Under the pieces are notes generated by a model. It saw only the letters and a list, made by a program, of their open reading frames with translations. It was not told the DNA's origin and ran no database searches. The translations under genes were made by a program, and so were the position numbers. Shown here in pieces: positions 15,295 through 31,513 of a DNA stretch of 64,000 nucleotides. Source of the stretch: an uncultured candidatus Porisulfidus sp. (GTDB taxonomy: Bacteria > Pseudomonadota > Gammaproteobacteria > Poriferisulfidales > Poriferisulfidaceae). Numbering within the stretch: the stretch's first letter is position 1; every line of letters begins with the position of its first letter. The stretch covers positions 1,040,586-1,104,585 of the forward strand of contig OZ241993.1 in the NCBI GenBank assembly GCA_965204575.1. The letters run 5' to 3'.

Positions 15295-15297
15295 TCC

Positions 15298-16707
15298 GTG
15301 AAGACGATTGACCTAGTGGTGATTGGCGGTGGCCCCGGTGGCTACAGCGCCGCGTTCCGCGCGGCGGACCTGGGCATGAAGGTGATGCTGGTGGAACGTT
15401 TCCCGCGGCTCGGTGGCGTATGCCTGAACGTCGGTTGCATCCCGTCCAAGACTTTGCTGCACGCGGCCGGCCTGATCGAGGATGCGGCCGAATGGCGGGA
15501 CCGGGGGGTGGTGTTCGACCCGCCGCGGATCGACCTGGATGCGTTGCGTGCCTGGAAGGAGAAGGGCGTATCGCAACTGGCCGACGGCCTCGGTGCGCTT
15601 GCCAAGCGGCGCGAGGTCGAGGTGGTGACTGGCCGAGGGAAGTTCATTTCCGCGCATACGTTGGCGGTCGAGACTGACGAAGGAACCGAAGAAGCCCGCT
15701 TTTCGCAAGCGATCATCGCCACGGGATCACGGCCGATCAAGCTTGGGTTGTTTCCAGATGATCCCCGGGTCTTGGACTCCACGTCCGCATTGGACTTGAC
15801 GGAGATCCCGGAGCGGCTGCTGGTGGTGGGGGGCGGTGTCCTGGGTCTGGAACTTGCCACGGTGTTCCGCGCCCTGGGGTCGCAGGTGACCGTGGTGGAA
15901 GCGCTGGAACAGATAATGGGCGAGGCCGACAAGGACGTGGTGCGGGCGTATCTCAAGCGCAACAAGGAACGGTTTGCTGCGCTGCATACGGGGACCCAGG
16001 TGGAGAAAGCCGAAGCAAAGGATGATGGTATTTCGGTACAACTCAAGAATGCGGACCGCCAGTGGGAAGAGTCGTTCAATGCGGTGCTGGTCGCGGTGGG
16101 ACGAGCGGCGAACAGCGAAGACTTGGGTCTGGAGAGCGCCGGGGTCGCGGTTGGGGAATCCGGCACGATTCCGGTCAACCACCAGCAGCGGACCAACATC
16201 CCCCACATCTTCGCCATCGGCGACGTGACGGGCGCGCCGATGCTGGCGCATCGGGCCTCCTACCAGGGCCGGTTGGCGGCGGAAGTCGCGGCCGGCATGA
16301 AATCCGCCTACGAGGCGAGGGTGGTTCCCTCGGTGGCCTACACCGACCCGGAAGTCGCCTGGGTGGGACTGACCGAACGCGAGGCCAAGGCTCAGGGCAT
16401 TGCTTATGAGCGCGGCATCTTCCCGTGGGCGGCAAGCGGACGGGCAGTCGGAACTTCGCGCGTCGAGGGCATGACCAAGCTGCTATTCGATTCGGAGACG
16501 AAACGCCTCATCGGGGCGGCCGTGGTGGGCGTGCATGCCGGGGAGTTGATCGCGGAGGCGGCCCTGGCGATCGAGACCGGTTGCGAAGCGGGAGACATTG
16601 CCGGGACGATCCATCCGCATCCGACATTCTCGGAGACTCTGGCCCAGGCCAGCGAGGTGGCCGAAGGGACGGTAACGGAGTTATTTCTGGGGCGTGGCAG
16701 GAATTGA
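15298..16707 (+). CDS. lpdA: Dihydrolipoyl dehydrogenase E3
   Basis: FAD-binding GGGPGGY motif, redox-active CLNVGCIPSK, and a C-terminal dimerisation domain. GTG start. Confidence 0.95.
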   Translation: MKTIDLVVIGGGPGGYSAAFRAADLGMKVMLVERFPRLGGVCLNVGCIPSKTLLHAAGLIEDAAEWRDRGVVFDPPRIDLDALRAWKEKGVSQLADGLGALAKRREVEVVTGRGKFISAHTLAVETDEGTEEARFSQAIIATGSRPIKLGLFPDDPRVLDSTSALDLTEIPERLLVVGGGVLGLELATVFRALGSQVTVVEALEQIMGEADKDVVRAYLKRNKERFAALHTGTQVEKAEAKDDGISVQLKNADRQWEESFNAVLVAVGRAANSEDLGLESAGVAVGESGTIPVNHQQRTNIPHIFAIGDVTGAPMLAHRASYQGRLAAEVAAGMKSAYEARVVPSVAYTDPEVAWVGLTEREAKAQGIAYERGIFPWAASGRAVGTSRVEGMTKLLFDSETKRLIGAAVVGVHAGELIAEAALAIETGCEAGDIAGTIHPHPTFSETLAQASEVAEGTVTELFLGRGRN

Positions 16708-16756: not shown

Positions 16757-16817
16757 AGCTTGATTGTGTTCTCGGATTCTTGTGTAAAGGACGCTAGATG
16801 TAACGCGCAAGTCGTTT

Positions 16818-19721
16818 ATGAATAATCCAAAAGTTGAATCTTGCCCTACATATAAGCGAACCGGGTTTGCTTCATTCCTGTTTGCGGTCATTTGCCCAAA
16901 AGATGCCAAAGCCGCTCTTTTGAGCCCGAACGTCTTGAGGTTGGCGTTCACGGTACGACTCAAGGAAATCCCCATCGGGAAAATCGAAGCGAGTGAAGTA
17001 AAAACCTTGTGGCGATGGGGAAGCGTTCGGATTCGACATGCTTCCGGGAAAGCGGCTGTTTCGGGATTGTCGCGACACAATGCCGAGGAACTAGCAAAAA
17101 CACTAGAAGCTTCCAGAGTCGATTGGTGGCATAAGCTTTTCGCGACGCAGATCGAATCTCTGCGCTCCGTTCACGACCATTTGGCGCACTTCAGCAACCC
17201 GCCAAGGTATATCTCTCATGGTGCCGGCTGTAACCTTGAGCGCGATGCGGAGGCAGTGGCTGGCCGATTTGCTTCCCGGTGGCCGGATGCGTTGTCCAGC
17301 AGCCCGGAAATTAAGATGCTGAAAATGGTCCGGGAGTATTTGAAGGATCCTGATGGTTGCCGCATAAAGGCAAACAAAATCTATATTGCAAATCAACTGA
17401 ATGGTTCGCGCGAATTTTTCGATCAAGTGGAGGCGCGGCCGCTAACCGATGAACAACGTAGAGCGGTTGTCATCGACGAAAACCGCAATCTGGTTGTCGC
17501 TGCGGCAGGAAGTGGAAAGACCTCGGTGATTGTGGGCAAGGCCGGCTGGCTTGTCTGGAGGGACTATCGGCGCCCGTCTGAATTGTTGCTGCTGGCTTTT
17601 GCGAGAGATGCGCGGAAAGAGATGGAAGAGCGGATCCAAAAGCGGCTTGGCGATAAAACAGCGCAAAGTCTTACAGTTCGAACCTTTCATAGTTTGGGTA
17701 TGTCGATTATTGGTCAAGCAGAAGGCCAACTCCCAACGTTGGCCAAAGTGGCTGAAGACAGCAGGGCGTTGTCCGATCTGCTGAAATCCATCATTGATAA
17801 CTTGCTCACGGAACACGCATTCACAAAAATTTTGCTGAAATGGTTCCAAACTTACTTCGCACCCTACAAAAGCGAACATGAATGCCAAAGTATGGGCGAG
17901 TATTGGGACTATGTCCGCAAGCATGACATCCGGTCACTGAAAGGTGAGAAGGTCAAGAGTTACCAAGAATGCGAGATTGCGAATTTTCTCTACCTCAATG
18001 GTGTTTCCTACGAGTACGAAGCAATTTATGAACACAAGACCGCGACACTGGACAGGCGGCAATATCAACCCGATTTTTATCTCCCGGAAGCAGGAGTCTA
18101 CATTGAGCATTTCGGGCTCAATGCATCGGGAGATCCTGCTCCGTTCGTCGATAAGACAGAATACCTCCGGTCCATGAAGTGGAAGCGGCAATGTCACGAC
18201 AGATTCGGCACTATTCTCGTTGAGACATTCAGCCACGAGCATGATGCGGGGAAATTAACCGAGAACTTGGCTGAGAAATTAGCGGCTCACGGCGTGACCT
18301 TTTCTCCAATTCCTTCTGCAGACATCTTCTCTATTTTGAATGAACAGGGTCGGGTTGATCCGTTCACACATTTTGTGGCGACTTTTCTACAACACTACAA
18401 AGGGGCTCGATTGTCATTTCAGGAGGTAGCTCGACGGGCTACGGGTGTCAGGGACAGGCTGAGGGCAGAAGCGTTTCTAGCCGTTTTCAAGCCGATTTTC
18501 CAGCGCTACCAAGATACCCTTTCCCAGCAAGGACAGATAGATTTTCATGACATGATCAATCAAGCAACGGAGCATGTAGAGACGGGACGCTACCGTAGCC
18601 CTTTCGGCTATATCCTCGTCGATGAGTTTCAAGACATCTCCCCTGGGAGAGCTAGATTGCTGAAGGCATTGCTCGATCAGTCTCCGACGACCCAGTTGTT
18701 TGCCGTTGGCGATGACTGGCAATCAATATACCGGTTCGGTGGATCAGACATTGCCGTTATGCGCGAGTTCGAAGATCATTTCGGGCACAGTGAGCGTATT
18801 GATTTGGAAACAACTTTTCGCTGTGCCGATCGAATCTCTAAAGTTGCGACTGACTTCATTCTTCGCAATCCTGCACAGATACACAAGGAGACCCATTCAG
18901 TACTCCAAGCAGCCGGGACCAGTGTGTATATCGGCCTTCCTGAGAAAGAGCGCTCTCTGCTCAGAGAAACGCTTGATGAGATTGCCGCTGACGCGGCTCG
19001 TCATGACGGAGGATCGACTGTTCTGTTGTTGGGTCGCTACCGGCATATGCAGCCGGAAAATATGTCTGAGTTAGGCGGACAATACTCTGGGTTGCAACTC
19101 TCCTACATGACCGTGCATCGTTCAAAAGGACTGGAGGCCGACTATGTCGTGGTGCTCGGTCTGTGTTCCGGAAAATACGGGTTTCCGTCCGAGATCAGTG
19201 ATGACCCACTTCTCGACTTAGTTCTTGCTGAGCCGGAAAAGCACCCGAATGCTGAGGAGCGCCGCTTATTCTATGTCGCTGTCACACGTGCCAGACGACG
19301 TGTCTATCTGCTCGCAGATGATGGTCCGCCTTCTTCCTTTGTCCAAGAGTTGATTGATGGGGAATACGATGTTGCCGTTTTCGGACGAGCACCAGAAAAT
19401 GACGTTTCTTGCCCGAGGTGCACCGAGGGGCGCTTGGAACGACGCGAAAATGCTCGGAATGGAAAAATTTTTTACGGCTGCTCGAATTGGCCTTATTGCA
19501 AGTATCGACAGCCCGTTTGTCCCAAGTGCAAAACAGGGTTGTTGGTCAAAAAAGACACTGCTTTTCGCTGCGAGGACTGTGGCCAAGATGTAGAGGGCTG
19601 TCCCAGATGTGATGGCTGGCTGATAAAAAGAGTCAGCCAGTATGGCCCTTTCTTTGGCTGTTCGAATTGGCCTTTCTGTGATTACACCCGAAACATTAAG
19701 CAACGACAGTCACGGCACTAG
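16818..19721 (+). CDS. Helicase IV (HelD)-like SF1 UvrD-family helicase with an inserted nuclease-like domain and three C-terminal topoisomerase-type C4 zinc ribbons
   Basis: 967 aa. Walker A AAAGSGKTSVIVGKAGWL and the motifs LLLAFARDARKEMEERI, ILVDEFQDISPGRARLL, LFAVGDDWQSIYRFGG, DYVVVLGLCSGKYGFP and YVAVTRARRRVYLL align with E. coli HelD. An insert around YQECEIANFLYLNG...QPDFYLPEAGVYIEHFG looks like a PD-(D/E)xK-type domain. Three CxxC...GCSNWPxC modules close the C-terminus. Low-GC context. Confidence 0.8.
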   Translation: MNNPKVESCPTYKRTGFASFLFAVICPKDAKAALLSPNVLRLAFTVRLKEIPIGKIEASEVKTLWRWGSVRIRHASGKAAVSGLSRHNAEELAKTLEASRVDWWHKLFATQIESLRSVHDHLAHFSNPPRYISHGAGCNLERDAEAVAGRFASRWPDALSSSPEIKMLKMVREYLKDPDGCRIKANKIYIANQLNGSREFFDQVEARPLTDEQRRAVVIDENRNLVVAAAGSGKTSVIVGKAGWLVWRDYRRPSELLLLAFARDARKEMEERIQKRLGDKTAQSLTVRTFHSLGMSIIGQAEGQLPTLAKVAEDSRALSDLLKSIIDNLLTEHAFTKILLKWFQTYFAPYKSEHECQSMGEYWDYVRKHDIRSLKGEKVKSYQECEIANFLYLNGVSYEYEAIYEHKTATLDRRQYQPDFYLPEAGVYIEHFGLNASGDPAPFVDKTEYLRSMKWKRQCHDRFGTILVETFSHEHDAGKLTENLAEKLAAHGVTFSPIPSADIFSILNEQGRVDPFTHFVATFLQHYKGARLSFQEVARRATGVRDRLRAEAFLAVFKPIFQRYQDTLSQQGQIDFHDMINQATEHVETGRYRSPFGYILVDEFQDISPGRARLLKALLDQSPTTQLFAVGDDWQSIYRFGGSDIAVMREFEDHFGHSERIDLETTFRCADRISKVATDFILRNPAQIHKETHSVLQAAGTSVYIGLPEKERSLLRETLDEIAADAARHDGGSTVLLLGRYRHMQPENMSELGGQYSGLQLSYMTVHRSKGLEADYVVVLGLCSGKYGFPSEISDDPLLDLVLAEPEKHPNAEERRLFYVAVTRARRRVYLLADDGPPSSFVQELIDGEYDVAVFGRAPENDVSCPRCTEGRLERRENARNGKIFYGCSNWPYCKYRQPVCPKCKTGLLVKKDTAFRCEDCGQDVEGCPRCDGWLIKRVSQYGPFFGCSNWPFCDYTRNIKQRQSRH

Positions 19722-19732
19722 GCCGCCGCAGC

Positions 19733-20170
19733 TTAAAGGTTGTTCGATAGCGAAGACCACGGATTGACGAGCGCCACATCCATCCCTCTAAAATCTTTAG
19801 TGTTGCGCGTGACGAGAGTTAATCCGTGTCGCTTTGCTACAGCGGCAATCTGCGCGTCAGCCATTGGCTTTTGGCGGCCTGTGTTGTCTCCATCTCCCAT
19901 GATTCTTCCCCAGAGGATTGCGGCATCTTGGTCGAAAGGAAGAATTCGGTCTTGAAATTGAGAGACCAAGTCATCTTCAACCCAGCGCATGAGGAGGTCT
20001 CTTTTTGCTGGCTCTTTCACACGGCTTGCGCCTCGCGCCAACTCACCAAGACTGATTGAGGAGAGGAATAGGTTTTCGGGATTCTGTTCTGCAAACCAAG
20101 CTGTCACTTTAGGCTCAGGCCGAGGCTTGAGCGTTTCGCTGAGCACATTGGTGTCGATCAGGTAGGGCAT
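19733..20170 (-). CDS. vapC: VapC-family PIN-domain toxin
   Basis: MPYLIDTNVLSE... carries the PIN acidic residues (D6, E, D). 145 aa. Confidence 0.85.
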   Translation of the reverse strand: MPYLIDTNVLSETLKPRPEPKVTAWFAEQNPENLFLSSISLGELARGASRVKEPAKRDLLMRWVEDDLVSQFQDRILPFDQDAAILWGRIMGDGDNTGRQKPMADAQIAAVAKRHGLTLVTRNTKDFRGMDVALVNPWSSLSNNL

Positions 20171-20490
20171 TATTCGAGATCAATCTGGCGGCCTGTGGAA
20201 CGGTCACGCTCAATCACGATGTCTTCGCCCACAAATGGGGATGAGCGAAAGAAATCGACCAATTCCACACCAGTTCGTGCCGATCTTACGGGTGTCATAG
20301 ACGTGATGGCCTTACGTACTTTTTTGGCGTTTTTCCCTCCCTCCCGGAGGATGCTGGCAACAGCCTTGATGGCCCATGCGTCGCGCGTAGGTACGGTGAC
20401 TTCAATGCGTCGCGCCCCTTGGGCGGTTGCTTTGGCGCGATGTCGGGCGACCCGCACCTTCGATTTTGTACTTGTCGATCGCTTGGGCAT
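20170..20490 (-). CDS. vapB: VapB-type antitoxin (partner of the upstream PIN toxin)
   Basis: A 106-aa ORF whose stop overlaps the toxin start. Basic N-terminus, C-terminal toxin-binding-like tail. Confidence 0.6.
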   Translation of the reverse strand: MPKRSTSTKSKVRVARHRAKATAQGARRIEVTVPTRDAWAIKAVASILREGGKNAKKVRKAITSMTPVRSARTGVELVDFFRSSPFVGEDIVIERDRSTGRQIDLE

Positions 20491-20596
20491 GTATATAATC
20501 CGGTAACGTTACCGGATTATATACTATAATAACCTGGATGCGAATAGAACGCTGTCATCTCGGATTTTCATAAATGATAAATGAGGTTCATTCGAT

Positions 20597-20947
20597 ATGA
20601 ATATTCAAGACTACGTTGAAGAGGGAATCTTCTCTCCGAAATTGATTTCGGATGTGCTTTTCACGACCCAGTCCGATATTGCAAACACCTTGGGTCTCAC
20701 TCGGAGTGCTTTTTCCCACGCCGAGAGGCGACGGGCAGAGAAAACACAAACCCGATTGCAGGAAATGCTGGAGATTCTCGATCGCGTCGAGCAGTTCACT
20801 GGCTCACCGCTTGCATCTTACGCATGGTTTCGTTCGGAACCAATCACCGGGTTCGGGGGGCATACCGCCAGCAGGCTGGTACGCGAAGGACACGCTGATT
20901 ACGTGCATGAGTATCTTGACCGCAAACAGGCTGGCAGAGATGCCTGA
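20597..20947 (+). CDS. Xre/MbcA/ParS-family antitoxin (DUF2384 C-terminal domain), orphan
   Basis: The C-terminal SYAWFRSEPITGFGGHTASRLVREGHADYVHEYLDR matches the DUF2384 toxin-binding domain, and an N-terminal HTH is present. No RES-domain toxin ORF lies downstream. Confidence 0.7.
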   Translation: MNIQDYVEEGIFSPKLISDVLFTTQSDIANTLGLTRSAFSHAERRRAEKTQTRLQEMLEILDRVEQFTGSPLASYAWFRSEPITGFGGHTASRLVREGHADYVHEYLDRKQAGRDA

Positions 20948-21005
20948 TCAAGTTGTTTGCCCATACGCTATACTTTTCGCGCCTTTTTAGCTACGCAATT
21001 GTTCA

Positions 21006-21077
21006 GTGCCTGCCGTCACCCTTTCTGACGGCTCGACCCGCGAGTTTGCACAGCCGGTCACGGTGATGCAGAGGTTG
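21006..21077. repeat. Degenerate duplicate of the thrS 5' coding end (direct repeat partner of 29588-29659)
   Basis: gtgcctgccgtcaccctttctgacggctcgacccgcgagtttgcacagccggtcacggtgatgcag is about 85% identical to the thrS start, where it encodes (M)[21 protein letters not shown]. Confidence 0.8.
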
Positions 21078-21137
21078 GGAAGGCAATCTCGACAAATTCC
21101 GGCAAGGCCGCCCGGCGTGATCTAATTGATTGGGGGC

Positions 21138-22361
21138 CTATGCTGGGCATTCAAACGCTGTCGCATAGGCCGCGAGATCTGCCGCACTCATGTCGAGTTG
21201 TCGTGCGATTTCTTTCCAGCCGGCAACCGCAGTGGCAACTTCGTCGATGATGGCTTCGGCTCGGTGCGCGCTCAATGCGAAGTAGGGTGCAGCGGTGCGG
21301 GCGAGATCCAGATTAGCCTCTGGGCCTTCTTCCGAGATCCAGGTCGTCAATTCTCGCGCTTTCTCGGCCAGGGGCACCGGGTTCAGGTCATAGGCCGGTG
21401 AAAGACGCCATTGGTTGTCATGGTCGTACAGGAACCCGTGATTGCGGAGGTGGTCGTCCAGGTTGCCTGCCATCACATTGAATACGACCCGTCGCCACAG
21501 TTCGTGCAGGTCTTCCGTCGGGGCGCTTGAGTGCATCCTGATGGCTTCCGCGATATCCGTGTACGCCGCTTCGTCGCCATCCTCGAGCCCCAGGAGGGTC
21601 ATCGCCGAGATGAACGGGATCCGCCGCTCGCCATCCCGGTCGAATCGTGTCATCAGGGATACCGGTCGGCCCGCCACGTCCAACAGTGTGGCTTCTGCAG
21701 TGTTGATGCCGGCGGCGGCGGCCAATGTCATGGCCAGCACCTCGCCATGGGGAATACTTCGGTCGTCATCCTGTGTCGGAAACTTGGCGATGGCGAGGCG
21801 GCCGTCATCATCTATGACGGCGGATTTTGGCCGGGCGCCGCCGAGAGGGGAACCTTCGTTCAGAAGGATCTTCAGGTCTTCGGCAGTTTCGGTGCCTGAT
21901 CCTACGGCATCGGCAGCATTGATCAGTTCCGGCAGCCGAATCAAGGGAGGCACGCGGCGGGGGCGGGTGCCGGGTTCGAGACCTTCTTCGCCTTTTCGGC
22001 GGAACTGGAGTGCGCCGATTCTCGTTCGGTCGTCAATGGAGAGAAGGTAATCCACCTCGGACAAGGTGCGCTTTTCGCCGGTTTTGCGAAAAGCCCGCCT
22101 GGCCAGTTGCCGACCCCATCGGTCCGGTGCGGCATCGCGCAATGCACCGGGCAGTGCTGACTTGCTCGACGAGGTATAAAACGGTTGCTGTCCGAGCGGC
22201 AGGTTCGCGGGGTCGAGCGCAAAGGCCTGAGGACGATTGAGCCATTCATGGGCGTATTCGAAAACCGAGCTTGGGCCACGCCGCTTGGCAAGGTAATGGA
22301 ACCGTCCGACAAGACAGGCCACTCCATTGTCGTCGATGAAGACTTCAAGGGTGTCGGTCAT
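21138..22361 (-). CDS. hipA: HipA-family type II toxin (Ser/Thr kinase)
   Basis: 407 aa. An N-terminal HipA_N-like region and a C-terminal kinase core with the aspartate-containing motif (LDDHLRNHGFL). Paired with the HTH gene at 22358-22693. Confidence 0.8.
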   Translation of the reverse strand: MTDTLEVFIDDNGVACLVGRFHYLAKRRGPSSVFEYAHEWLNRPQAFALDPANLPLGQQPFYTSSSKSALPGALRDAAPDRWGRQLARRAFRKTGEKRTLSEVDYLLSIDDRTRIGALQFRRKGEEGLEPGTRPRRVPPLIRLPELINAADAVGSGTETAEDLKILLNEGSPLGGARPKSAVIDDDGRLAIAKFPTQDDDRSIPHGEVLAMTLAAAAGINTAEATLLDVAGRPVSLMTRFDRDGERRIPFISAMTLLGLEDGDEAAYTDIAEAIRMHSSAPTEDLHELWRRVVFNVMAGNLDDHLRNHGFLYDHDNQWRLSPAYDLNPVPLAEKARELTTWISEEGPEANLDLARTAAPYFALSAHRAEAIIDEVATAVAGWKEIARQLDMSAADLAAYATAFECPA

Positions 22362-22693
22362 GATGGTGCCCGGGTTTGCTTGCGGGGCCGTATTTTCTTG
22401 GGCAGCCGGTGTTCTTCAAGGTCCAGTCCGAGGGAATCGTCGCGTCGGTCAGCCACTTGGCCGAGACCTTCGGCAAGCCCGAGGATCGCCAACACGGTCG
22501 CATAGGCCCCCATCGAGACCGAAGGGTCGCCGCGCTCCACCTTGTGGAGGGTGGCACGGCTAATGAATGCCCGTTCCGCCATCGAGACCGTGGAGATGCG
22601 GCGCTTCTTCCGCGCCACCACGATGTCCTCGCCGAGCTTGGCGAGGGCACGCTTCGCCGCACCAGGCAGTGCACGTGTCGCTAAGGTCTTCAT
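22358..22693 (-). CDS. hipB: HipB-like XRE HTH antitoxin
   Basis: HTH ISTVSMAERAFISRATLHKVERGD. Overlaps the start of hipA. Confidence 0.75.
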   Translation of the reverse strand: MKTLATRALPGAAKRALAKLGEDIVVARKKRRISTVSMAERAFISRATLHKVERGDPSVSMGAYATVLAILGLAEGLGQVADRRDDSLGLDLEEHRLPKKIRPRKQTRAPS

Positions 22694-23405
22694 ATTGTCT
22701 TATATTATAATCAAAAAACAATTGAATGTTTATTTAATTATACAATATGATACATGCCTTCCTGTTGTGAAGTGCTTCAGGTTACGCCCATTGCGGGCAG
22801 CTTTCCAGAAGGATAGAGACTCTCCGCATGAAGAACGAGCCTGTCCTGCTTCATTCGGACCGGGGCTTTGACCCAATCAGGAGCACCCTGGCCTGAGGGT
22901 CCTGAAGTCGCCGTCGGGAGGTCTCGGCCTGCCTTTTGCCGATGGGAAAGGATCCGTATTCCGTGCCTTGGCTTGTTGATTCTTCGACAGATGGAATCTC
23001 TTCATAATCATTTCAAAAATAGTGAAATGATATATTGATAAATTGAATAATCCGTTGTATATCATTCATATAATAATTTCAAATATCCTAATTATTGTTT
23101 CATGCCAATCACCGACTCGGCCGTGAGTTTCACGGACTGCATGAGGGCAACGTGATACGCTACCGGTTGAGGCTTGAGGATCTTGCCGGGCTCGGAGAGG
23201 ATTCATGATGAAACGTCTACGGACTCTTGCGAAGAAGATTTTCGGCATCGTGGACATTCGACGCTTCGGAGAGTTTGCGAGAAGCGGCCGCGCCTGCTCA
23301 GGCCGTTAGCACTCCCGGTCGTTCGGGTCCGGATCAGTAAGAGACTGCCTTTTACTCAGACAACTCGCGGGTCGAGGGGCGATCGTGCAACTAAGGGATG
23401 AGACT

Positions 23406-23436
23406 GATGTGTATAATATCTGTAATTATACACATC
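23406..23436 (+). promoter_or_regulatory. Perfect 12-bp inverted repeat operator, with an embedded TATAAT, upstream of the vapBC module
   Basis: gatgtgtataat-atctgta-attatacacatc lies 10-40 nt upstream of the VapB start at 23447. Confidence 0.55.
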
Positions 23437-23446
23437 TGGAGTTGTC

Positions 23447-23641
23447 ATGCGCACCAATATCGAGATCAATGATAGTTTGATGGCAGAGGCCATGAAGGCG
23501 GGAGGATTCGAGACCAAGAAAGCTACTGTGGAGGAAGGATTGCGCCTGCTTGTGCAAACCCGATTACAGGGACGAATCCGGAAATTGCGCGGGAAGTTGC
23601 GCTGGGAGGATTCGCTTGACGAAATGCGGCGTGACCGGTGA
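23447..23641 (+). CDS. vapB: VapB-family antitoxin
   Basis: 64 aa. MRTNIEINDSLMAEAMKAGGFETKKATVEEGLRLLV is a typical VapB N-terminus. Confidence 0.8.
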   Translation: MRTNIEINDSLMAEAMKAGGFETKKATVEEGLRLLVQTRLQGRIRKLRGKLRWEDSLDEMRRDR

Positions 23642-24027
23642 TTGTCGTCGACTCCTCCGTCTGGATTGATTACTTCAACGGCACCGAGACCCGAGAAACC
23701 GCGCTGCTTGACGGAATCCTCGGCCTGGAACCGGTTATGGTGGGCGACCTTATTCTGGCGGAGGTTCTGCAAGGTTTCCACGCTGACCGCGACGTTCGCA
23801 GGGCGCGTATGGTGCTGGATACCCTATTGTTTGAGCCTATGCTGGGCCGCGGTATTGCTTTGGCCAGTGCTGCTAATTACCGGACACTTCGTGGCAAAGG
23901 TATTACCGTACGGAAAACCATTGACGTGCTAATCGCGACCTTTTGTATAGAAAATGGCCATGTCTTGCTTCACTCTGACCGGGACTTTGTCCCGATTGAA
24001 GAACACCTCGGACTAAAAGCCCTTTAG
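23638..24027 (+). CDS. vapC: VapC-family PIN-domain toxin
   Basis: MIVVDSSVWIDYF... is a PIN domain. It overlaps the vapB stop by 4 nt. Confidence 0.85.
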   Translation: MIVVDSSVWIDYFNGTETRETALLDGILGLEPVMVGDLILAEVLQGFHADRDVRRARMVLDTLLFEPMLGRGIALASAANYRTLRGKGITVRKTIDVLIATFCIENGHVLLHSDRDFVPIEEHLGLKAL

Positions 24028-24149
24028 CCATTGAATAGCCCTACAAGTTTTTCAGGGTGAGCATTTCGTTTGGTGGACAGGCCGGGATTGTTTTGGGGTG
24101 CGGTCGAGGATGGCTAGACTGTCATGGGTGGCTCTCCAGAAGCAATAGA

Positions 24150-24190
24150 TACTCTATTCCGTATACAATATGATTATACGCAATAGCGTG
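24150..24190 (+). promoter_or_regulatory. Palindromic operator-like sites upstream of hipB (second module)
   Basis: Two palindromes, aatagatactctatt and cgtatacaatatgattatacg, sit just upstream of the ATG at 24196. Confidence 0.35.
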
Positions 24191-24195
24191 TTTTC

Positions 24196-24468
24196 ATGTC
24201 ATTGGAACCGGAGTTGACAATGAATCAAATCGCCCGAACTGCGAAACAGGTCGGCGTGGCGGTGCGTCGCCATCGTCGTGCCTTGGGGTGGAGTCAAAGC
24301 GACCTCGGATCAAAAGCGGGCCTGCGCCAGGCGACGATATCGACGCTGGAGAGCGGAGAACCCGGGACGCGCTTGCGTACGCTGGTCGACGTCATGGCCG
24401 CGCTCGATCTTGAGGTGGTGATCCGGGACCGCTCCAAGGCTCCCAAGAGCATCGAGGAACTGTTCTGA
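24196..24468 (+). CDS. hipB: HipB-like XRE HTH antitoxin
   Basis: HTH IARTAKQVGVAVRRHRRALGWSQSDLGSKAGLRQATISTLESGE. Confidence 0.8.
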   Translation: MSLEPELTMNQIARTAKQVGVAVRRHRRALGWSQSDLGSKAGLRQATISTLESGEPGTRLRTLVDVMAALDLEVVIRDRSKAPKSIEELF

Positions 24469-25769
24469 TGGCGCGTCGGCGAACCCATATTCCTCTCGAC
24501 GTCTACCTCAATGGCCGTCTTGTCGGCCGGTTGCATCGGTCGGCGGGTGGAGCAGTAGAGTTCCGGTATGACGAGAGTTGGCTGAGTTGGGAGGGCGCCT
24601 TGCCGGTTTCACTCTCGCTGCCGCTGCGCGAGGAGCGCTATTCGGGTGATGCCGTCATCACGGTTCTGGACAATCTGCTTCCGGATGATGAAGCAGTTCG
24701 CCGCCGGGTCGCGGAGCGGGTCAGGGCCGAGAGCCATAGCGTTTACGATCTCCTGTCGAAGATCGGAAGGGATTGCGTGGGGGCCTTGCAGTTCCTGCCT
24801 CAAGGGTATGCGCCCGACCCGGTGGATGCGGTGGAAGGGCGACAGATTCCTGATGGCGAGGTTGCCGAAAGAATCCGCAGCCTTGCCATGACTCCGCTGG
24901 GCATCGACGAGACGGAAGCCTTCCGGATCTCGATTGCAGGCATGCAGGAGAAAACCGCTTTCCTCCACTGGGGAGGGGAGTGGCACCTCCCGCACGGCAC
25001 GACCGCGACGACCCACATCATGAAACCGCAGATTGGCGTATTGCCGAACGGGATTGATCTCACCCAGAGCGTGGAAAACGAGCATCTGTGCCTGAAGCTA
25101 ACTTCCGCTTTCGGGTTGCCCACCGCGCGCACGGCAATCACGGACTTCGACGATATCCGCGTGCTGGTGATCGAGCGTTTTGATCGGCGCTGGGACCAGG
25201 AAGAGCGATTGTTGCGGTTGCCTCAGGAAGACTGTTGCCAGGCGCTTTCGGTGCCGTCGTCTCTGAAATACGATGCCGACGGCGGCCCCGGAATGTCCGA
25301 TCTTCTCAACTTGCTGCAAGGCAGCGACACGCCATCGGTGGACCGGCGGCTGTTCCTGAAGTCTCAGATCGTGTTCTGGCTACTCGGTGCGACTGACGGG
25401 CACGCCAAGAACTTCTCCGTTTTCTTGGGACCCGGATCCCGGTTCAGCCTAACTCCTTTTTATGACGTGATGTCGACGCAGCCCGCCGTGTATGCGGGAA
25501 AGATCAGAAAGAACCAGTACAAATTCGCACTCGCGGTCGGCGACAATCGGCACTACGTCATGGACACGATCCTGCCGCGCCATTTCGTGCAAACGGCAGA
25601 AAGCAGTGGCGTGAAAGGTACGGTCGTTGAAGAGGTCTGCGCTGAAGTAGCGGGATCAGCCGAACACGCAATCGGTGAAGCGCTGGGTTCCTTGCCAGAG
25701 GATTTTCCGGAGGCGCTGGCCGACTCGATTATCCAGGGAGTGCGGGCGCGTTTGAAGCGGCTTCAGTAG
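24468..25769 (+). CDS. hipA: HipA-family type II toxin (Ser/Thr kinase)
   Basis: 433 aa. N-terminal HipA coupling region (LDVYLNGRLVGRL) and a kinase C-domain (ATDGHAKNFSVF). The start overlaps the hipB stop. Confidence 0.85.
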   Translation: MARRRTHIPLDVYLNGRLVGRLHRSAGGAVEFRYDESWLSWEGALPVSLSLPLREERYSGDAVITVLDNLLPDDEAVRRRVAERVRAESHSVYDLLSKIGRDCVGALQFLPQGYAPDPVDAVEGRQIPDGEVAERIRSLAMTPLGIDETEAFRISIAGMQEKTAFLHWGGEWHLPHGTTATTHIMKPQIGVLPNGIDLTQSVENEHLCLKLTSAFGLPTARTAITDFDDIRVLVIERFDRRWDQEERLLRLPQEDCCQALSVPSSLKYDADGGPGMSDLLNLLQGSDTPSVDRRLFLKSQIVFWLLGATDGHAKNFSVFLGPGSRFSLTPFYDVMSTQPAVYAGKIRKNQYKFALAVGDNRHYVMDTILPRHFVQTAESSGVKGTVVEEVCAEVAGSAEHAIGEALGSLPEDFPEALADSIIQGVRARLKRLQ

Positions 25770-26004
25770 ATGGCGGGTCGAGATCCGGGGATTTTTTCAG
25801 CAACTTGAACGCGAGATTGAACAGTAGTATCAGTCATTTCCATGTGTTTTCCCTGTAGCGGATATGCCCTGATCCTAACTCGATTCCCGTCGCGTCTGTC
25901 AAGTTTATCTATATAGTCCCCTTTTTAGGCATTGAATTCTTCTTCCCCGATCTCCGAGCTAGGGCGATTTTGGGGGATTTTTTCCGTTTGGGGTTGCCCA
26001 CCAA

Positions 26005-27830
26005 GAGATTTTCGAGCCGAAGAGGGTGATGTGGTCGGGTTTTGTGTCCAACCGCTGGGGGCTGAGGATGATTTTTGACGCTTCGGCGCCCTGTCGCGCA
26101 GGGCTCCGCTCGCCGCTCAGGCGGCCCGTGCCAGGGTCGCAGCCGAACCGGTCGTCACGAAGTGTCGTAGGCCAGGAACCCGGCCATTCGGTCCAGCGCC
26201 TGCCGGACCCGCTGCACATGAGCCGTCTGGAACACCAGCCGCCGGTTGCGGGCATGCCGCACCACCTTGGCCACCAGGTGGACCCAGCACAGGCGCACCT
26301 GCTTCATCCGGGTCCACAGCCAGTCGCGTCCGAACGCGGCATGCCGCAGCAGCGCGTTGACGTTGGCCGACAGCACCGCCAGCTGCCACCAGGCGGCGTT
26401 CGCCCCGAACTTCCCCGACGGCATCATGCCGCCGGCCAGGTCCTGCTTGAGCACGGCGTGCACCTCTTCGCCATGCCCGCAGCGCTCGTGCGCGAAGCGC
26501 ACCACCTCCGAGGCGGTCATCCCCAGGCCCGCCCCCTCCCCGGAGCGCCCCGGATACGGCAGGTTGGTCAGATAGACCCGGTAGCGGTACGCCGGACGCC
26601 CGGACCTCGCCGGCGTCTCGTCCGGGTTCACCCCCAACACGCCCGGCAAGACACGCCGGGTGCCGACATGGCGCAGCAGCTGCCCCCGGGACTGCCGCGC
26701 GCCCCACGGCGAGACATAATCCAGGTCGGCGCATTCCAGTTCCGGCTCCGAGGCCCGCACCGGCTCCCACCACTGCTCCGGCGTCGCCCCCACGGCCTCG
26801 CGTAGTTCTTCTCTCTGCGGCGCGCCGACCACGAAGCCGATCACGCCGAAGCGGCGCAATGCCGCCGGGCGCGAAGCCGGCACGTTGCAGAAGCGGATCA
26901 GCCGGTTCTGGCAACCCGCCCCGTCCGAACGCAGCCACACCCGCCGCACCTCCGGCGGCAGCCCCGACAGCACCCGCTGGAGCATCTCCAGGTTGCCCAC
27001 CGAGGCCGGCACGTTGCCGTCGCGGAACTGGCTCGCCAGCACCATGCCCAACTCCGGGCAGAACATCGACAGCGGCTGGTAGCCCCGCTCGCCCGGAACC
27101 TCGCCGGTCGAACTGCGGTAGGTCGGCTGCGCCTCGCGCTTGCCCGAGGCCAGCACCGTCGCATCCAGGTCCAGGGTCAACTCGTCCAGCCCCAGGCGCC
27201 GGATCAGGCCCCGCGCCAGCCGCCGGTTGACCGCCTCGACCAGTTGCAGGGCCGCCGCCGGCTCCGGCACCACCGCCGCGCCCTTCACGCGCGCCGCACC
27301 GGCCGCCGCATCATGGAAACGCCGCAGCCAGTCATGCACCGCATTGGCGGACGGGAAGGTGCGCCCGCGCCCCCCGCGGAAGCGCGCCGCCAGCCCCGCC
27401 GGCATCACCCCCAGAAGCTCCGGTTCGTAGTCGCGCACCAGTCGGCACAGGCTGCGGTCCGCCTCCAGCGCGTCCACGTCCGAGACCCGCTCGTGACCGA
27501 TCACGTTGAGCAGCAGCACGGTCAGCATCATCTGGCCGTCGCGCCAGCCCTGCGCCCCGGCCACCTGCACCGGAAGGGTCCGAAACGCCCCGCTGCGGCG
27601 CAGCAGCTCCAGCCACAGCACGGCCCCGCCACAGGCGCTGGTTCGGCTTAACTTGGGGTCGCCCCCAATGGCGACCAAAGGGGAAAAGTTCGACATATAA
27701 TGAGACTCCCGGTTGGTTGTTCCCGGTTCACCCAATGGGTGAAACTTTTGCACCACCGATTTTAACCGTTTCACTCGGTTAAATAAGCGCCAACCGGGAC
27801 CTCGCTCTCATTTAGCTCGGATATCGGGGT
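26005..27830 (-). mobile_element. IS1380-family insertion sequence (ends approximate)
   Basis: Contains the DDE transposase at 26155-27696. Terminal inverted repeats could not be defined confidently. Confidence 0.4.
26155..27696 (-). CDS. IS1380-family DDE transposase
   Basis: The C-terminal signature HAVLKQDLAGGMMPSGKFGANAAWWQLAVLSANVNALL fits the conserved H-x-K-x-LK...SGKF-AN-W...LA-N pattern of IS1380 transposases. An ATG at 27696 has a GGGAG SD; there is an upstream in-frame GTG at 27774. Confidence 0.7.
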   Translation of the reverse strand: MSNFSPLVAIGGDPKLSRTSACGGAVLWLELLRRSGAFRTLPVQVAGAQGWRDGQMMLTVLLLNVIGHERVSDVDALEADRSLCRLVRDYEPELLGVMPAGLAARFRGGRGRTFPSANAVHDWLRRFHDAAAGAARVKGAAVVPEPAAALQLVEAVNRRLARGLIRRLGLDELTLDLDATVLASGKREAQPTYRSSTGEVPGERGYQPLSMFCPELGMVLASQFRDGNVPASVGNLEMLQRVLSGLPPEVRRVWLRSDGAGCQNRLIRFCNVPASRPAALRRFGVIGFVVGAPQREELREAVGATPEQWWEPVRASEPELECADLDYVSPWGARQSRGQLLRHVGTRRVLPGVLGVNPDETPARSGRPAYRYRVYLTNLPYPGRSGEGAGLGMTASEVVRFAHERCGHGEEVHAVLKQDLAGGMMPSGKFGANAAWWQLAVLSANVNALLRHAAFGRDWLWTRMKQVRLCWVHLVAKVVRHARNRRLVFQTAHVQRVRQALDRMAGFLAYDTS

Positions 27831-27871
27831 TCTTTATTTCCTCCTATAATAAGTAAAGGAGGATTTTATAG

Positions 27872-28126
27872 ATGCCTTTAAACATCAAAAATATTGCTAC
27901 TCATGCGTTAGCAAAGAAAATCGCAACCTTAACTGGGGAGTCTATGACTAAGGTTGTCACAGAGGCTCTCCAGGAGAAATTGGTGCAAGTGGAAAAGGCA
28001 AAAGGCCGCGTTGGACTGGCGGAGGAACTTGATCGCATTGCCTTGCACTGTGCCAGTCTACCAAGGCGCGATGACAGAAGCCCCGACGAGATCATTGGTT
28101 ACGACGACCACGGGCTACCCCAGTGA
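27872..28126 (+). CDS. vapB: VapB-family antitoxin
   Basis: 84 aa. MPLNIKNIATHALAKKIATLTGESMTKVVTEALQEKL. Confidence 0.75.
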   Translation: MPLNIKNIATHALAKKIATLTGESMTKVVTEALQEKLVQVEKAKGRVGLAEELDRIALHCASLPRRDDRSPDEIIGYDDHGLPQ

Positions 28127-28544
28127 TCGCCATTGATGCGTCTGCTCTCATCGCGATTCTGAGCGATGAACCGGAACGAAGTGGTTTCAACAAACTGATC
28201 GAGTCGGAAGAATTTGCGTACATTAGTGCTGCCAGCCTACTTGAGACCCGTATAGTTCTGTTTTCTCGCTTTGGTGACGATGGAGTCTTGGCTTTGGATT
28301 CGTTCCTTCTGAAAAGTGGCATCACTGTTGTCGAGGTCTCTCCCCGCATGGGCGCATTGCATTTGAGGCATACCAGCGTTTTGGCAAAGGGACAGGCCAT
28401 GGCGCATCTCTAAATTACGGAGACTGTTTTTCGTATGCTTTGGCAAAATATCTGGATGCTCCACTTCTCTTTAAGGGCGATGACTTTTCCAAAACAGACA
28501 TTTTCTCGACGTTGGTCGATACAGGAGAAACAGGTCAGCACTGA
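28123..28544 (+). pseudogene. vapC: VapC PIN-domain toxin interrupted by a frameshift
   Basis: The N-terminal PIN region (MIAIDASALIAIL...) reads to about 28385. The conserved C-terminal part (IAFEAYQRFGKGTGHGASLNYGDCFSYALAKYLDAPLLFKGDDFSKTDI) continues in the -1 frame, up to the stop at 28544. Confidence 0.7.
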
Positions 28545-28703
28545 GCAAGTGACTGAAGATCAAATGTCTGCATTGATCCTTGTCGCATGTGGATTGTAAA
28601 ACTGCAAAACTGATGTCCAAGACAAATCACTGGTGTTGTACCTCAGAGTTGAACCTGGGTCTTATAAAATATCCCGGTATCGGATTCATACAGGAACGGT
28701 AAC

Positions 28704-29579
28704 ATGGGAAATACCGAGGAATGCTATAAAGTTTGCCGTGAGAATATATCGGAGGCAGGACTATGGGTAGTGAAGTCAGAATATTGCGTGGTCCGTGCTT
28801 TGAGATCTCCACGGTGGTCAAAAACTTCTCAGCGTGACGAATCATCTAGGCCAGGTGTTTACATTCTTGCTGATGGAGCTAAAGAAAAGATTTACATTGG
28901 TCAAACCGATACTCTTCAGAAGAGAATACGTACTCATAAAAATAATAGATTCGATTGGTGGGAAGAAATGTTGTGGATTACCCCGGATGGAAGCTACCGG
29001 TTCGGGACAGACCGTAGACGCTACGTGGAATCCAAGCTGATAAGCCAAGCCCGGAAGCAAGAGATCGAATTGAAAAATGATCAGTTTCCAGAACCACCTC
29101 AGCTAGACCTAGATGAGCAAAAAGACCTAGATGAAAAGGTTCTAAATCCCATTCTCCAGATATTTATTCCTTTGATGATGGGCTTCAATTTTGTGTTGCC
29201 ATCGCCCCAGAGAGATACTGAACCAGGTTGTACTGAGTTTGAAATTATTCCGCAACAAGAGAGCATCAAGGCCTTTGCGAAGATAGTTGGCGGCAAATGG
29301 ATTGTGCAAAAAGGTTCTCAAGCCCGCAAAGATTGGATGGGAGGTGCGAGAACGAAAGAGCTCATTAAGGGGGCATACCACAATCTGTATCAGTCTTTAA
29401 AGAAACAGGATATTCTTCGCGAATACGAGGAATTCTGTGTTTTCACCGAAGACCATGAATTTGATAGTCCTAGTGCGGCCGCATCTGTCATCTACGGACG
29501 ACAGGCCGCGGGTCCTCGCAATTGGAATGTGAGAGGCGAAGACAAAACCTACCGGGAATGGGAAAAAGAGAACCTATAA
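28704..29579 (+). CDS. GIY-YIG nuclease-domain protein with a C-terminal DUF4357 domain
   Basis: GVYIL...KIYIGQT...R...E gives the GIY-YIG core. The C-terminal [22 protein letters not shown] resembles DUF4357. Confidence 0.6.
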
Positions 29580-29587
29580 ATCCTCCA

Positions 29588-31513
29588 GTGCCTGTCGTAA
29601 CCCTTCCTGACGGTTCCACCCGCGAGTTCAAGCAGCCGGTCACGGTGATGCAGATCGCCGAGGACATCGGTGCGGGCCTTGCCAAGGCGGCATTGGCCGG
29701 CCGGGTCAACGGGCGGTTGGTGGATGCCTGCGTCGAGGTGGACGAGGACGCCGAAGTTTCCATCATCACCAATCGCGACGAGGAAGGCATCGAGATCCTG
29801 CGCCATTCGCTGGCACACATGCTGGGGCAGGCGGTCAAGCAACTGTATCCAGACGCCCAGATGGCGGTCGGCCCGGTGATCAAGGACGGGTTCTACTACG
29901 ACATCGCCCACAAGGAATCCTTCACCGAGGAAGACCTTGAGAAGATCGAGGCCAAGGTGCAGGAGCTGATCGCACAGGACTATGACGTGCTGCGCGAAGT
30001 GGTGACCCGAGAGCGGGCCCGCGAAGAATTCGAGGGACGTGGCGAAACCTACAAGGTGCAGATCGTCGACGAGATCCCGGAAGGCGAGGAAATCGCGCTG
30101 TACCACCACCAGGAATACGTCGACATGTGTCGTGGCCCGCATGTCCCGAACACCCGCCACCTGCGGGCGTTCAAGTTGACCAAACTGGCGGGCGCCTACT
30201 GGCGGGGCGACTCCCGCAACGAGATGCTGCAGCGCATCTACGGCACCGTCTGGCCGGACGCCAAGCAGCTTCGGGCCTACCTCCACCGGCTGGAGGAAGC
30301 GCAGAAGCGCGACCACCGCAAGCTGGGGCGCGCGATGGACCTGTTCCATTTCCAGGAGGAAGCGCCGGGCATGGTGTTCTGGCACGCCAACGGCTGGATC
30401 CTGTATCGCCAGTTGGAAAGTTACATTCGCGAACGCCTGGACCAGACGGGCTACCAGGAGGTGCACACTCCGCAGATACTGGATCGCAGCCTTTGGGAGC
30501 GGTCCGGGCACTGGGACAAGTTCGGCGAGATGATCTTCACCACCGAGTCCGAGAACCGCGAGTACGCGGTCAAGCCGATGAACTGCCCGGGTCATGTCCA
30601 GTTGTTCAACCAGGGGCTCAAGAGTTACCGGGACCTGCCGTTGCGCATGGCCGAATTCGGCACCGTGCACCGCAACGAGCCGTCGGGCACCCTGCACGGG
30701 CTGATGCGGGCGCGCCGCTTCGTGCAGGACGACGCGCACATCTTCTGCACACCGGAACAGCTGCAGGACGAGATTGCCGAGTTGATCGAACTGACGCGTT
30801 CGACTTACCGGGACTTCGGATTCGAAGACATCATATTGGGCCTGTCGACCCGCCCGGAGCGGAGGATCGGCGAGGATGCCCTGTGGGACCGGGCCGAGAA
30901 GGCGTTGGACGAGGCGATGACCGCGACCGGCCTGGAATTCGCCGTGCATCCGGGCGAGGGCGCGTTCTACGGGCCGAAGATCGAGTTCACCTTGACCGAC
31001 TGCATCGGGCGCGAATGGCAGTGCGGCACGATCCAGCTGGATTTCTCCATGCCGGACCGCCTCGGTGCCCGGTACGTGGACGAGAACAGCGAGAAGGTGG
31101 TGCCGGTCATGATTCATCGTGCCATCTTCGGCTCGCTGGAACGGTTCATCGGCATCCTGATCGAACACTACGCCGGGGACCTGCCGCTGTGGCTGGCGCC
31201 CCGCCAGGCAGTGGTGCTGAACATCACCGATGCCCAGGCCGACTATGCCCGGGAGGCCATGGCACGGTTGCAGGCAGCCGGCGTGCGGGCGCAGAGCGAT
31301 CTTCGAAACGAGAAAATCTCCTTTAAAATACGCGAGCACACGCTCGCGCACGTCCCGTACCTGCTGGTAGTGGGCGATCGGGAACAGGAAAACCGGGCTG
31401 TCGCGGTGCGAGCGCGGGACGGCACGGACCTGGGGCCGGTGCCGCTGGATGAACTGGCGGAGCGGTTTGCTGTTACAATTCGCGCTCGCCGATCAAATCT
31501 GATGGAGGATTGA
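29588..31513 (+). CDS. thrS: Threonyl-tRNA synthetase
   Basis: 641 aa from a GTG. TGS domain ([26 protein letters not shown]), editing domain, class II core and anticodon-binding domain. Confidence 0.93.

Follow-up and report, generated by a model that had tools for sequence, protein, structure and literature searches.

A core-flanked toxin–antitoxin and defence hotspot between lpdA and thrS in an uncultured gammaproteobacterial clade, with a displaced duplicate of the beginning of thrS

In the 64,000-nucleotide stretch of DNA analyzed here (the window), the beginning of thrS occurs twice, once at the start of the functional gene and once far upstream, among toxin–antitoxin (TA) genes that separate thrS from lpdA. 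This arrangement raises the question of how the 5′ end of a housekeeping gene came to be duplicated and displaced. The preliminary description of this DNA read the whole interval as one island that had replaced the upstream region of thrS by integration into, or recombination at, the start of the gene. The comparisons described below make it likely that the lpdA–thrS interval is a long-standing, integrase-free site of TA and defence gene swapping in an uncultured gammaproteobacterial clade, and that the truncated thrS copy (thrS′) was left there by imprecise recombination and does not mark the integration of a site-specific mobile island.

Gene content of the lpdA–thrS interval

The 12.9-kb interval stands out by its base composition, with a GC content of 44–55 % across most of 16.7–29.6 kb versus approximately 65 % in the flanks; this low-GC character, reported in the preliminary description, holds except for the hipBA module on the minus strand (~61 %) and the insertion sequence (70–73 %). 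The left core flank is lpdA (15298..16707, plus strand), for which Pfam calls were obtained in the relatives. At the nucleotide level, lpdA is 84–86 % identical to its counterparts in the related loci L081, L082 and L090, and the block 14000–16700, encompassing the end of aceF together with lpdA, is about 88 % identical to L081, L082 and L214. The right core flank is the functional thrS (29588..31513, plus strand), with the TGS, SAD, core and anticodon-binding domains all recognized by Pfam.

The genes listed in the preliminary description are all present between these flanks, and the helicase described there as HelD-like is, by Pfam, a UvrD/helicase-IV-like protein with a C-terminal topoisomerase-type zinc ribbon (Zn_ribbon_Top1). 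This low-GC gene (16818..19721, plus strand; PF00580, 4.9e-45; PF01396, 1.5e-17) scores 504 bits against NF008276, under the cutoff of 543, and is collinear in the window, L084, L085/86 and L089; a ResIII gene located 5′ of it in L084 and L085/86 is absent from the window. Next comes a minus-strand module (19733..20490) consisting of a vapC gene encoding a PIN domain (19733–20170; PF01850, 3e-18) and a 106-aa putative antitoxin (20170–20490) without a family match; this module is shared by the window, L081 and L085/86. It is followed by an orphan antitoxin of the Xre/MbcA/ParS type (20597..20947, plus strand; Xre_MbcA_ParS_C, formerly DUF2384; PF09722, 1.1e-7). The RES toxin partner is missing beside it, as it is in L081, whereas in L082 and L084 the xre homologs are followed by a RES gene.

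Beyond the displaced thrS start lies the minus-strand hipBA module (21138..22693), which comprises hipA (21138–22361; PF07804, 9.8e-51) and a hipB-like HTH gene (22358–22693; PF13560) and produced no tblastx match in any sampled relative. Three further TA modules are encoded on the plus strand: a vapB-vapC pair (23447..24027; PF09957, 1.4e-15; PF01850, 1.1e-10), the VapB homolog of which was found in L085/86; a hipB-hipA pair (24196..25769; PF01381; PF07804, 1.4e-48; PF13657, 3.8e-28), a homolog of which adjoins lpdA in L090; and an Rv0623-like vapB (27872–28126; PF07704, 7.5e-25) with a broken vapC (27872..28599 for the module), a homolog of which sits 3′ of the thrS′ scar in L084. The vapC of the latter pair is interrupted by a frameshift near 28405–28415, such that the PIN profile is matched over positions 1–75 of 120 and the C-terminal PIN motif is in another frame. 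Altogether, the interval contains three vapBC modules, two hipBA modules, the orphan Xre antitoxin, the helicase and a candidate single-gene defence gene, PDC-S14.

The last-named gene encodes a full-length GIY-YIG/DUF4357 nuclease (28704..29579, plus strand; PF14267, PF01541). Its product matches the PADLOC profile PDC-S14 (PDLC04923) over residues 37–290 (4.8e-50), and this match together with both domains assigns it to PDC-S14, with a defence role that is that of a candidate only. The gene adjoins thrS in the window, L082/83 and L090, and the protein aligns with its homologs from L082 and L090 to the last residue, with 55–60 % amino acid identity; a metagenome scan with this protein recovered no relative. 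Homing by the GIY-YIG gene was considered and rejected because the genes are no more similar than this, the adjacent thrS 5′ alleles do not cluster, and the family is a defence candidate.

Between the second hipBA pair and the frameshifted vapBC lies an intact minus-strand insertion sequence (25945–27829, or 25940..27834 with the target duplication). Its transposase (26155–27774) scores 63 bits against PF13701, above the cutoff, and 157.7 bits against NF033539, under the equivalog cutoff of 180. With a DDE transposase of the family, 17-nt terminal inverted repeats (94 % identity) and a 5-bp TTCTT target duplication, the element belongs to the IS1380 family. Its transposase gene is the sole mobility gene among the ORFs scanned: Pfam, NCBIfam and PADLOC searches of the plausible ORFs in 16.8–29.6 kb detected no tyrosine or serine recombinase and no excisionase, in agreement with the earlier statement that no integrase remains. 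Searches of the island for Rfam families and tRNA genes yielded nothing relevant.

The displaced thrS start and the working gene

The duplication consists of a direct repeat of 76 nt, 20997–21072 versus 29579–29654 (84 % identity, BLAST E ~1e-15), that spans the thrS GTG and codons 1–22 and brackets 8.5 kb; its last 23 nt are identical. The copy of the thrS start noted in the preliminary description is thus real, although the similarity ends at 21072 rather than at 21077. The thrS′ scar itself (21006..21072, plus strand) is a decaying allele of the L081/L214 type, 92.5 % identical to L081 versus 86.6 % to the window's own thrS. It carries private substitutions, and its reading frame continues into unrelated sequence past the junction 21072/21073, probably an illegitimate joint. 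The 23-nt identical stretch is present in nearly all thrS alleles and, judged from these alleles, appears to be ordinary coding conservation that is not specific to the repeat pair.

Directly upstream of the scar is a conserved 46-nt block (CATACGCTATACTTTTCGCGCC...TTCA; 20960..21005, plus strand), probably a −10 region with a short 5′ UTR. In the relatives with ThrRS at least 88 % identical, this block stands before thrS and before every thrS fragment; its sole copy in the window precedes the 67-nt fragment, with which it occupies 20960–21072. The working thrS of the window lacks this block, which is retained in all close relatives. As originally suggested, recombination took place inside the thrS 5′ end. 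The N-terminus of the working gene is complete: the GTG start, at 29588 and not 29587, aligns with Met1 of Escherichia coli ThrRS, and the homology to the relatives starts at 29584–29586.

In E. coli, the thrS operator is a leader of ~120 nt with two anticodon-arm-like hairpins beside the ribosome-binding site. The preliminary description noted that thrS lacks its native leader, the region that carries this operator in E. coli. A conserved upstream block was indeed lost, but the features of an E. coli-type translational operator were not found in the upstream region of this clade's thrS genes: conservation is limited to the 46 nt, RNAalifold predicted no conserved helix and no covariation in the leader, and there was no Rfam match. 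The only conserved structure in the RNA analysis was an invariant hairpin inside the thrS coding start.

Because the working thrS is without its conserved upstream block, its transcription would come from the GIY-YIG gene, with translational coupling as a further possibility; 8 nt separate the TAA codon of that gene from the thrS GTG. A consensus promoter scan revealed no clear promoter, and the promoter and terminator scans were uninformative. The locus shows that turnover of this sort can cost an essential synthetase gene the conserved region in front of it, and the gene may then rely on transcription from within the island. A stronger version, which we consider rather doubtful, is that the hotspot now carries the essential thrS as a passenger, with the promoter-proximal block left 8.5 kb away before a dead fragment, and that the GIY-YIG gene is the only source of thrS expression, by co-transcription with termination–reinitiation or from a leaderless start. 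Were this the case, selection for ThrRS would shelter the neighbouring defence cargo, the only clean way back would be for the two 67-nt thrS repeats to recombine, and the flank-gene scars thrS′, lpdA′ and recO′ would record more generally how integrase-free defence hotspots grow by one-ended recombination.

Related loci and the origin of the scars

The comparison set comprised 13 related loci, the close relatives having been obtained by protein search and look-up of the encoding contigs, which are metagenomic and were viewed with 10-kb flanks. The closest genome compared is ~92 % identical at the nucleotide level, and an exact look-up of the window's ThrRS, with either V or M as its first residue, gave no match; a scan of genome contigs with ThrRS gave, among the matches listed, relatives of at most 69 % identity, and a metagenome scan with the leader pattern, which was too loose, returned 120 loci that were all chance matches. 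The clade includes contigs from metagenomes of the sponge Aplysina aerophoba, and the microbial metagenomes of sponges have been reported to contain exceptionally many defence genes (PMC5099237, PMC5649159).

Wherever ThrRS is 88 % identical or more, the relatives share the right flank thrS-infC-rpmI-rplT-pheST, whereas the set of TA and defence modules upstream of thrS differs in every one of them; the more distant L092 (86 %) and L093 (82 %) have no island. On the left, aceEF-lpdA is visible in L081, L082, L090 and L214, with lpdA–thrS intervals of 1.4, 4.7, 6.4 and 1.06 kb, respectively. The 10-kb flank does not reach as far as lpdA in L084, L085/86, L089 and L091, and the only visible trace of the left flank in L089 is a displaced lpdA fragment. 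The modules reassorted between genomes include vapBC, hipBA, Xre-RES, the helicase, GIY-YIG/DUF4357 and restriction–modification genes. With fixed flanks, varied content, TA and defence enrichment and atypical composition, the locus has the hallmarks of a core-flanked hotspot, and because most modules of the window recur, reshuffled, at the same locus in the relatives, it appears to be an old, hypervariable one. The same gene content in relatives, as a sign of ancient vertical inheritance, had been named in advance as grounds for dismissing the island, and the recurrence of most modules provides these grounds in part. The description of a single 12.9-kb island has to be abandoned, since the left 4.3 kb (helicase, vapCB, xre116, and the native thrS leader with the first 67 nt of the gene) is collinear with L081 and L085/86, and only 21073–29587 lies past the scar.

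Three independent thrS′ fragments were identified, ending at nt 67 in the window, at nt 147 in L084, where the fragment adjoins a truncated vapB, and at nt ~686 in L089, where it is fused with 2–3 nt of microhomology to nt 955 of lpdA, that is, to an lpdA 3′ fragment. The fragments differ from the functional thrS of their own genomes by 8–16 % and are closer to thrS alleles of other genomes. A further scar, a recO 3′ fragment (39901–40010) that matches the end of the genuine recO with 91 % identity, marks the recO-pdxJ region as a second hotspot in the window.

These scars bear directly on the competing explanations. An island or integrative and conjugative element (ICE) that integrated site-specifically into the thrS 5′ end, provided the gene with a new 5′ end and was subsequently deprived of its integrase would account for the displacement of the native 5′ end to the far side, for the complete replacement N-terminus of the functional gene, and for a direct repeat that ends in identical nucleotides as a site-specific core would. 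Such integration, as proposed for the thrS start in the preliminary description, is nonetheless very unlikely given that neither an integrase nor an excisionase was found among the ORFs scanned, the supposed core is kept in nearly all thrS alleles, the crossover point is not constant among the fragments of the relatives, and the content combines, as a mosaic, modules that relatives carry at the same locus. The suggested search for an attP-like thrS fragment was performed with the 8.5-kb block and a 22-nt 'core' against plasmids, phages and viral contigs, and gave no meaningful match and nothing resembling attP.

An intragenomic tandem duplication, in which sister strands were joined illegitimately, linking the thrS 5′ region to DNA further upstream, and one copy then diverged or had its content replaced, would require no foreign DNA at the joint. 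The thrS/lpdA joint of L089 is a classical tandem-duplication junction, and the private substitutions in the window fragment are consistent with age; the origin of the scars by this route is still unlikely, because fragment and functional copy are each nearer to alleles of other genomes and no duplicated content is common to both sides of the window scar. That the structure is a chimera or collapsed repeat in metagenome-derived sequence is hardly credible, even though the relatives too are metagenomic contigs: the repeat is too short and too diverged to mislead an assembler, the genes on both sides are intact, the insertion sequence has a clean target duplication, and comparable scars occur in the independent contigs L084 and L089.

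The varying break points and the absence of an integrase, together with the foreign alleles of the scars, point to homologous exchange, accompanied from time to time by an illegitimate joint, as the way in which the locus was built. Content would normally be exchanged by homologous recombination within the conserved flanking genes, with aceEF-lpdA to the left and thrS-infC-rpmI-rplT-pheST to the right. Occasionally, just one end would recombine homologously and the second would be sealed by an illegitimate joint, in the manner of homology-facilitated illegitimate recombination; such a one-ended event would add DNA rather than replace it and leave behind a truncated copy of the flank gene. In the window, two blocks of different ancestry, helicase-vapCB-xre-thrS leader-thrS codons 1–22 and hipBA...GIY-YIG-thrS, would have been joined in this way at thrS nt 67, with the IS1380 insertion and the vapC frameshift as later events.

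Relation to known systems

The ICE SXT/R391 integrates into the 5′ end of prfC. The thrS case is similar in that the insertion lies within the 5′ coding end of a housekeeping gene with a role in translation, and in that the inserted DNA provides a replacement N-terminus and new upstream sequence. Unlike SXT/R391, the lpdA–thrS locus has no integrase, conserved crossover point or conjugation genes, and its mosaic content is native to the locus in relatives.

The primary work on homology-facilitated illegitimate recombination is reportedly that of de Vries and Wackernagel in 2002, Prudhomme in 2002, and Meier and Wackernagel in 2003. The microhomology at the L089 joint, the sole junction that could be examined, resembles this process. 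One-ended recombination of this kind has been proposed for displaced arrays of T6SS immunity genes in Vibrio cholerae (PMC5361080). The resemblance to these arrays extends to the proposed combination of one homologous anchor with one illegitimate joint, to new DNA beside a conserved anchor, and to older content that is pushed away and orphaned, such as the xre antitoxin and the truncated vapB. The difference is that the displaced piece here stems from an essential aminoacyl-tRNA synthetase gene, of which it comprises the 5′ end and the promoter-proximal block, and that the process is deduced from sequence.

The 'minimal mobile elements' of Neisseria are comparable core-flanked variable loci. 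The core defence hotspots cDHS1 and cDHS2 of Pseudomonas aeruginosa are likewise core-flanked and without mobile-element markers, and how such integrase-free hotspots are built has explicitly been called open (PMC10250203). Like both, the lpdA–thrS locus has fixed core flanks, TA- and defence-rich content that varies between close relatives, lower GC and no dedicated integrase, and transfer through flank homology is proposed. The taxon and the flanks differ, and one flank of the locus described here is an essential gene without its own conserved upstream block. Defence hotspots that lie between core genes and lack an integrase are already known to be common; the lpdA–thrS locus differs in that it preserves, with its relatives, physical scars of their building, namely datable truncated copies of thrS, lpdA and recO that record the addition of DNA.

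The lpdA–thrS locus in the window and its relatives

Directly past the lpdA stop codon (16707), the GC content of the window falls from about 65% to 44–55% and recovers at thrS, as the preliminary description had noted; the exceptions are the hipBA(-) pair (21138-22693, about 61%) and an insertion sequence (70–73%). Profile searches confirmed every gene named in that description: a UvrD/helicase-IV-like helicase (16818-19721) that ends in a topoisomerase-type zinc ribbon, a PIN gene and its 106-aa partner, an orphan antitoxin of the Xre_MbcA_ParS_C family (xre116, 20597-20947), two hipBA pairs, hipBA(-) and hipBA(+) (24196-25769), a VapB-PIN pair, an Rv0623-type VapB followed by a PIN gene that carries a frameshift, a GIY-YIG/DUF4357 gene whose stop codon lies 8 nt ahead of thrS, and an intact IS1380-family element (25945-27829) bounded by 17-nt inverted repeats and flanked by a TTCTT target duplication. 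As reported, the ORFs scanned in this interval yielded no integrase. The GC content of the IS1380-family element, 70–73% versus 65% in the host core, and its perfect 5-bp target duplication suggest a recent arrival from a source of higher GC. Between hipB(-) and vapB(+), about 750 nt of approximately 50% GC (22694-23446) hold no convincing ORF and match no family; this stretch may be degraded cargo.

For comparison, we used the contigs of ThrRS homologues with 76–96% identity, among them MKWU01 from the Aplysina aerophoba sponge metagenome (PMC5099237, PMC5649159). On the right, thrS-infC-rpmI-rplT-pheST is kept in all relatives with ThrRS at least 88% identical; on the left, aceEF-lpdA is seen in the loci L081, L082, L090 and L214, and in the other relatives above this threshold lpdA falls outside the 10-kb flank. 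The DNA upstream of thrS differs in content in each of these relatives: Phd-PIN-VapB (1.06 kb) in L214; vapCB-xre116 (1.4 kb) in L081; xre-RES, a D12 methylase, DUF6996/6997/7226 and GIY-YIG/DUF4357 in L082/83; hipBA, a methylase, a DUF6996 gene and GIY-YIG/DUF4357 in L090; ResIII, helicase, vapCB, HTH, VapB, Fic/HipA-like, Phd, methylase and DUF6996 genes in L085/86; ResIII, helicase, a thrS fragment, a truncated vapBC, xre-RES and Eco57I in L084; helicase, KAP NTPase, HSDR_N, TnpB, a thrS fragment and an lpdA fragment in L089; and type I R-M, HepT/MNT, IS1595 and a TPR protein in L091. The more distant L092 (86%) and L093 (82%) carry housekeeping genes or other synteny at this position. By tblastx, the helicase, vapCB, xre116, VapB, hipBA(+), Rv0623-vapBC and GIY-YIG modules all have same-locus homologues in some relative, hipBA(-) and the IS being the only modules without one. 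Therefore, the locus is not a single recent island but an old, clade-wide reshuffling hotspot for defense and toxin–antitoxin genes, flanked by core genes; the discrete island of 12.9 kb originally proposed is not supported.

The PADLOC profile for the candidate PDC-S14 recognizes the GIY-YIG/DUF4357 protein (4.8e-50), and DUF4357 is also contained in GmrSD-type restriction enzymes (PMC4619093), so the gene is cargo rather than a mobility gene. Adjoining thrS in L082 (6762-9813) and L090 (6456-9427) is a trio consisting of a D12 methyltransferase, a DUF6996/DUF6997/DUF7226 protein and GIY-YIG/DUF4357, which looks like a restriction-modification-like defense system. The set recurs in L085/86 (7525-9671) without the nuclease, which L085-88 lack; the window retains the nuclease only. 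In L084 and L085/86, the helicase comes after a ResIII protein (about 940 aa), with which it possibly forms a two-gene system; in the window this partner is missing and the helicase is abutted by lpdA.

A stranded thrS leader and the expression of the working gene

The internal copy of the thrS 5' end previously noted is borne out by a 76-nt direct repeat (20997-21072 versus 29579-29654; 84% identity, BLAST E ~1e-15), which takes in the GTG start of thrS (29588) and codons 1–22. In alignments with E. coli ThrRS, this GTG corresponds to Met1. Several database ThrRS entries of the clade (P0003, P0004, P0006 and P0009) are called as 621 aa from Met21; because the full GTG-initiated 5' end exists in their DNA (L082, L090 and L214), this start is an artefact of gene calling and the proteins are not truncated.

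In all relatives at or above 88%, a 46-nt block, CATACGCTATACTTTCCGCGCC...TTTTTCA, lies ahead of the thrS start, and similarity among them ends completely upstream of it. Within it, a 12-nt core, ACGCTATACTTT, hardly varies; L081 differs at one base. The core lies about 33–47 nt before the GTG clade-wide (L081-L091, L214 and, inside the block at 20960-21005, the window). There is neither a conserved -35 element nor a Shine-Dalgarno sequence, and no RNA fold is conserved; the core is probably a -10 region, though strict conservation extends beyond a hexamer. The window holds a single copy of the block (20960-21005), immediately ahead of the 67-nt thrS fragment, and homology of the working thrS to its relatives begins only at 29584-29586. 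Thus, 20960-21072 represents the native promoter-proximal region and first 22 codons of thrS, and the working gene has lost the conserved block. The vapCB-xre116-leader context of the fragment is the same as in L081, and its allele is of the L081/L214 type (92.5% identity to L081, 86.6% to the window's own thrS). The fragment also bears private, partly non-synonymous changes, and hence the joint is not recent.

The preliminary description had held that thrS lost its native leader, which in E. coli carries the translational operator. The conserved upstream block is indeed gone; however, no E. coli-type operator is evident that could have been lost: only 46 nt are conserved in the clade, with no conserved fold and no Rfam match. 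The likely promoter region of the working gene, by contrast, is missing. The GIY-YIG protein of the window is complete to its last residue and is separated from thrS by ATCCTCCA; the corresponding gap is 127 nt in L082 and 513 nt in L090, both of which hold the conserved block. We infer co-transcription of the working thrS and the GIY-YIG gene, perhaps with translational coupling between the two; alternatively, thrS may be expressed leaderless from TATAAA at 29575-29580. Consensus promoter and terminator scans were uninformative for thrS expression. The apparent dependence of an essential thrS on island sequence is a curious feature of this hotspot.

Recombination scars and their possible origin

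Two relatives carry displaced thrS fragments of their own. In L084 (4841-5476), the leader is followed by a thrS fragment that stops at nt 147 and, about 40 nt further on, by a vapB cut in mid-gene and then vapC, both homologous to window 28034-28430. In L089 (7757-8911), the leader is followed by 686 nt of thrS, from which 14 internal nt are deleted, and this fragment is joined with 2–3 nt of microhomology to lpdA nt 955 (the last 450 nt of lpdA); the real thrS follows after a spacer of about 1 kb, and a TnpB/IS605 gene lies just upstream of the scar. Each fragment shows higher identity to thrS from other genomes than to the functional thrS of the genome that carries it; the L084 allele is nearer L089/L090 (91.8% identity to L089 versus 83.7% to L084's own thrS). 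Together with the window fragment, they amount to three independent events, each with its own break point and a different neighbour.

The thrS start had been proposed as a site of integration or recombination. Recombination stands, but not targeting by an integrase: the fragments break variably (nt 67 in the window, nt 147, nt 686), and no integrase was found. The window repeat ends in 23 identical nucleotides, which are coding sequence conserved in almost all thrS alleles, and the suggested search of plasmids, phages and viral contigs for an attP-like thrS fragment gave no meaningful match to the 8.5-kb block or the putative core. For these reasons, the joint appears not to be site-specific. 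Tandem duplication could also have left a second thrS 5' end, with its allele replaced later, and is the weaker explanation.

The usual route would instead be cassette exchange by homologous recombination within the core genes on either side. At times, homologous recombination at one end would be combined with an illegitimate joint at the other, adding DNA of a related genome and leaving a truncated flank gene at the joint. Either block could have been the incoming one, with hipBA...GIY-YIG-thrS using thrS as its anchor and lpdA-helicase...thrS' using lpdA.

The recO-pdxJ interval (39515-43614) is a second low-GC hotspot in the window, its spacer measuring 4.1 kb versus approximately 25–115 nt in L081, L082 and L214. 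Here, 110 nt of the recO 3' end are present a second time (39901-40010 versus 39414-39523; 91% identity). The interval also holds an IS1595-type transposase remnant (41026-41637) and, at 41957-42898, an N6_N4 DNA methylase with a 199-aa ORF after it. Like the thrS fragment, the recO duplicate is a flank-gene scar, in this case on the other kind of flank.

What sets the lpdA-thrS hotspot apart is the unusual legibility of its recombination scars. Core defense hotspots without mobile-element markers have been described (PMC10250203) and are consistent with the mechanism outlined here, and homology-facilitated illegitimate recombination, which has been put forward to explain displaced arrays of T6SS immunity genes (PMC5361080), follows the same logic as the one-ended joint that we infer at lpdA-thrS.
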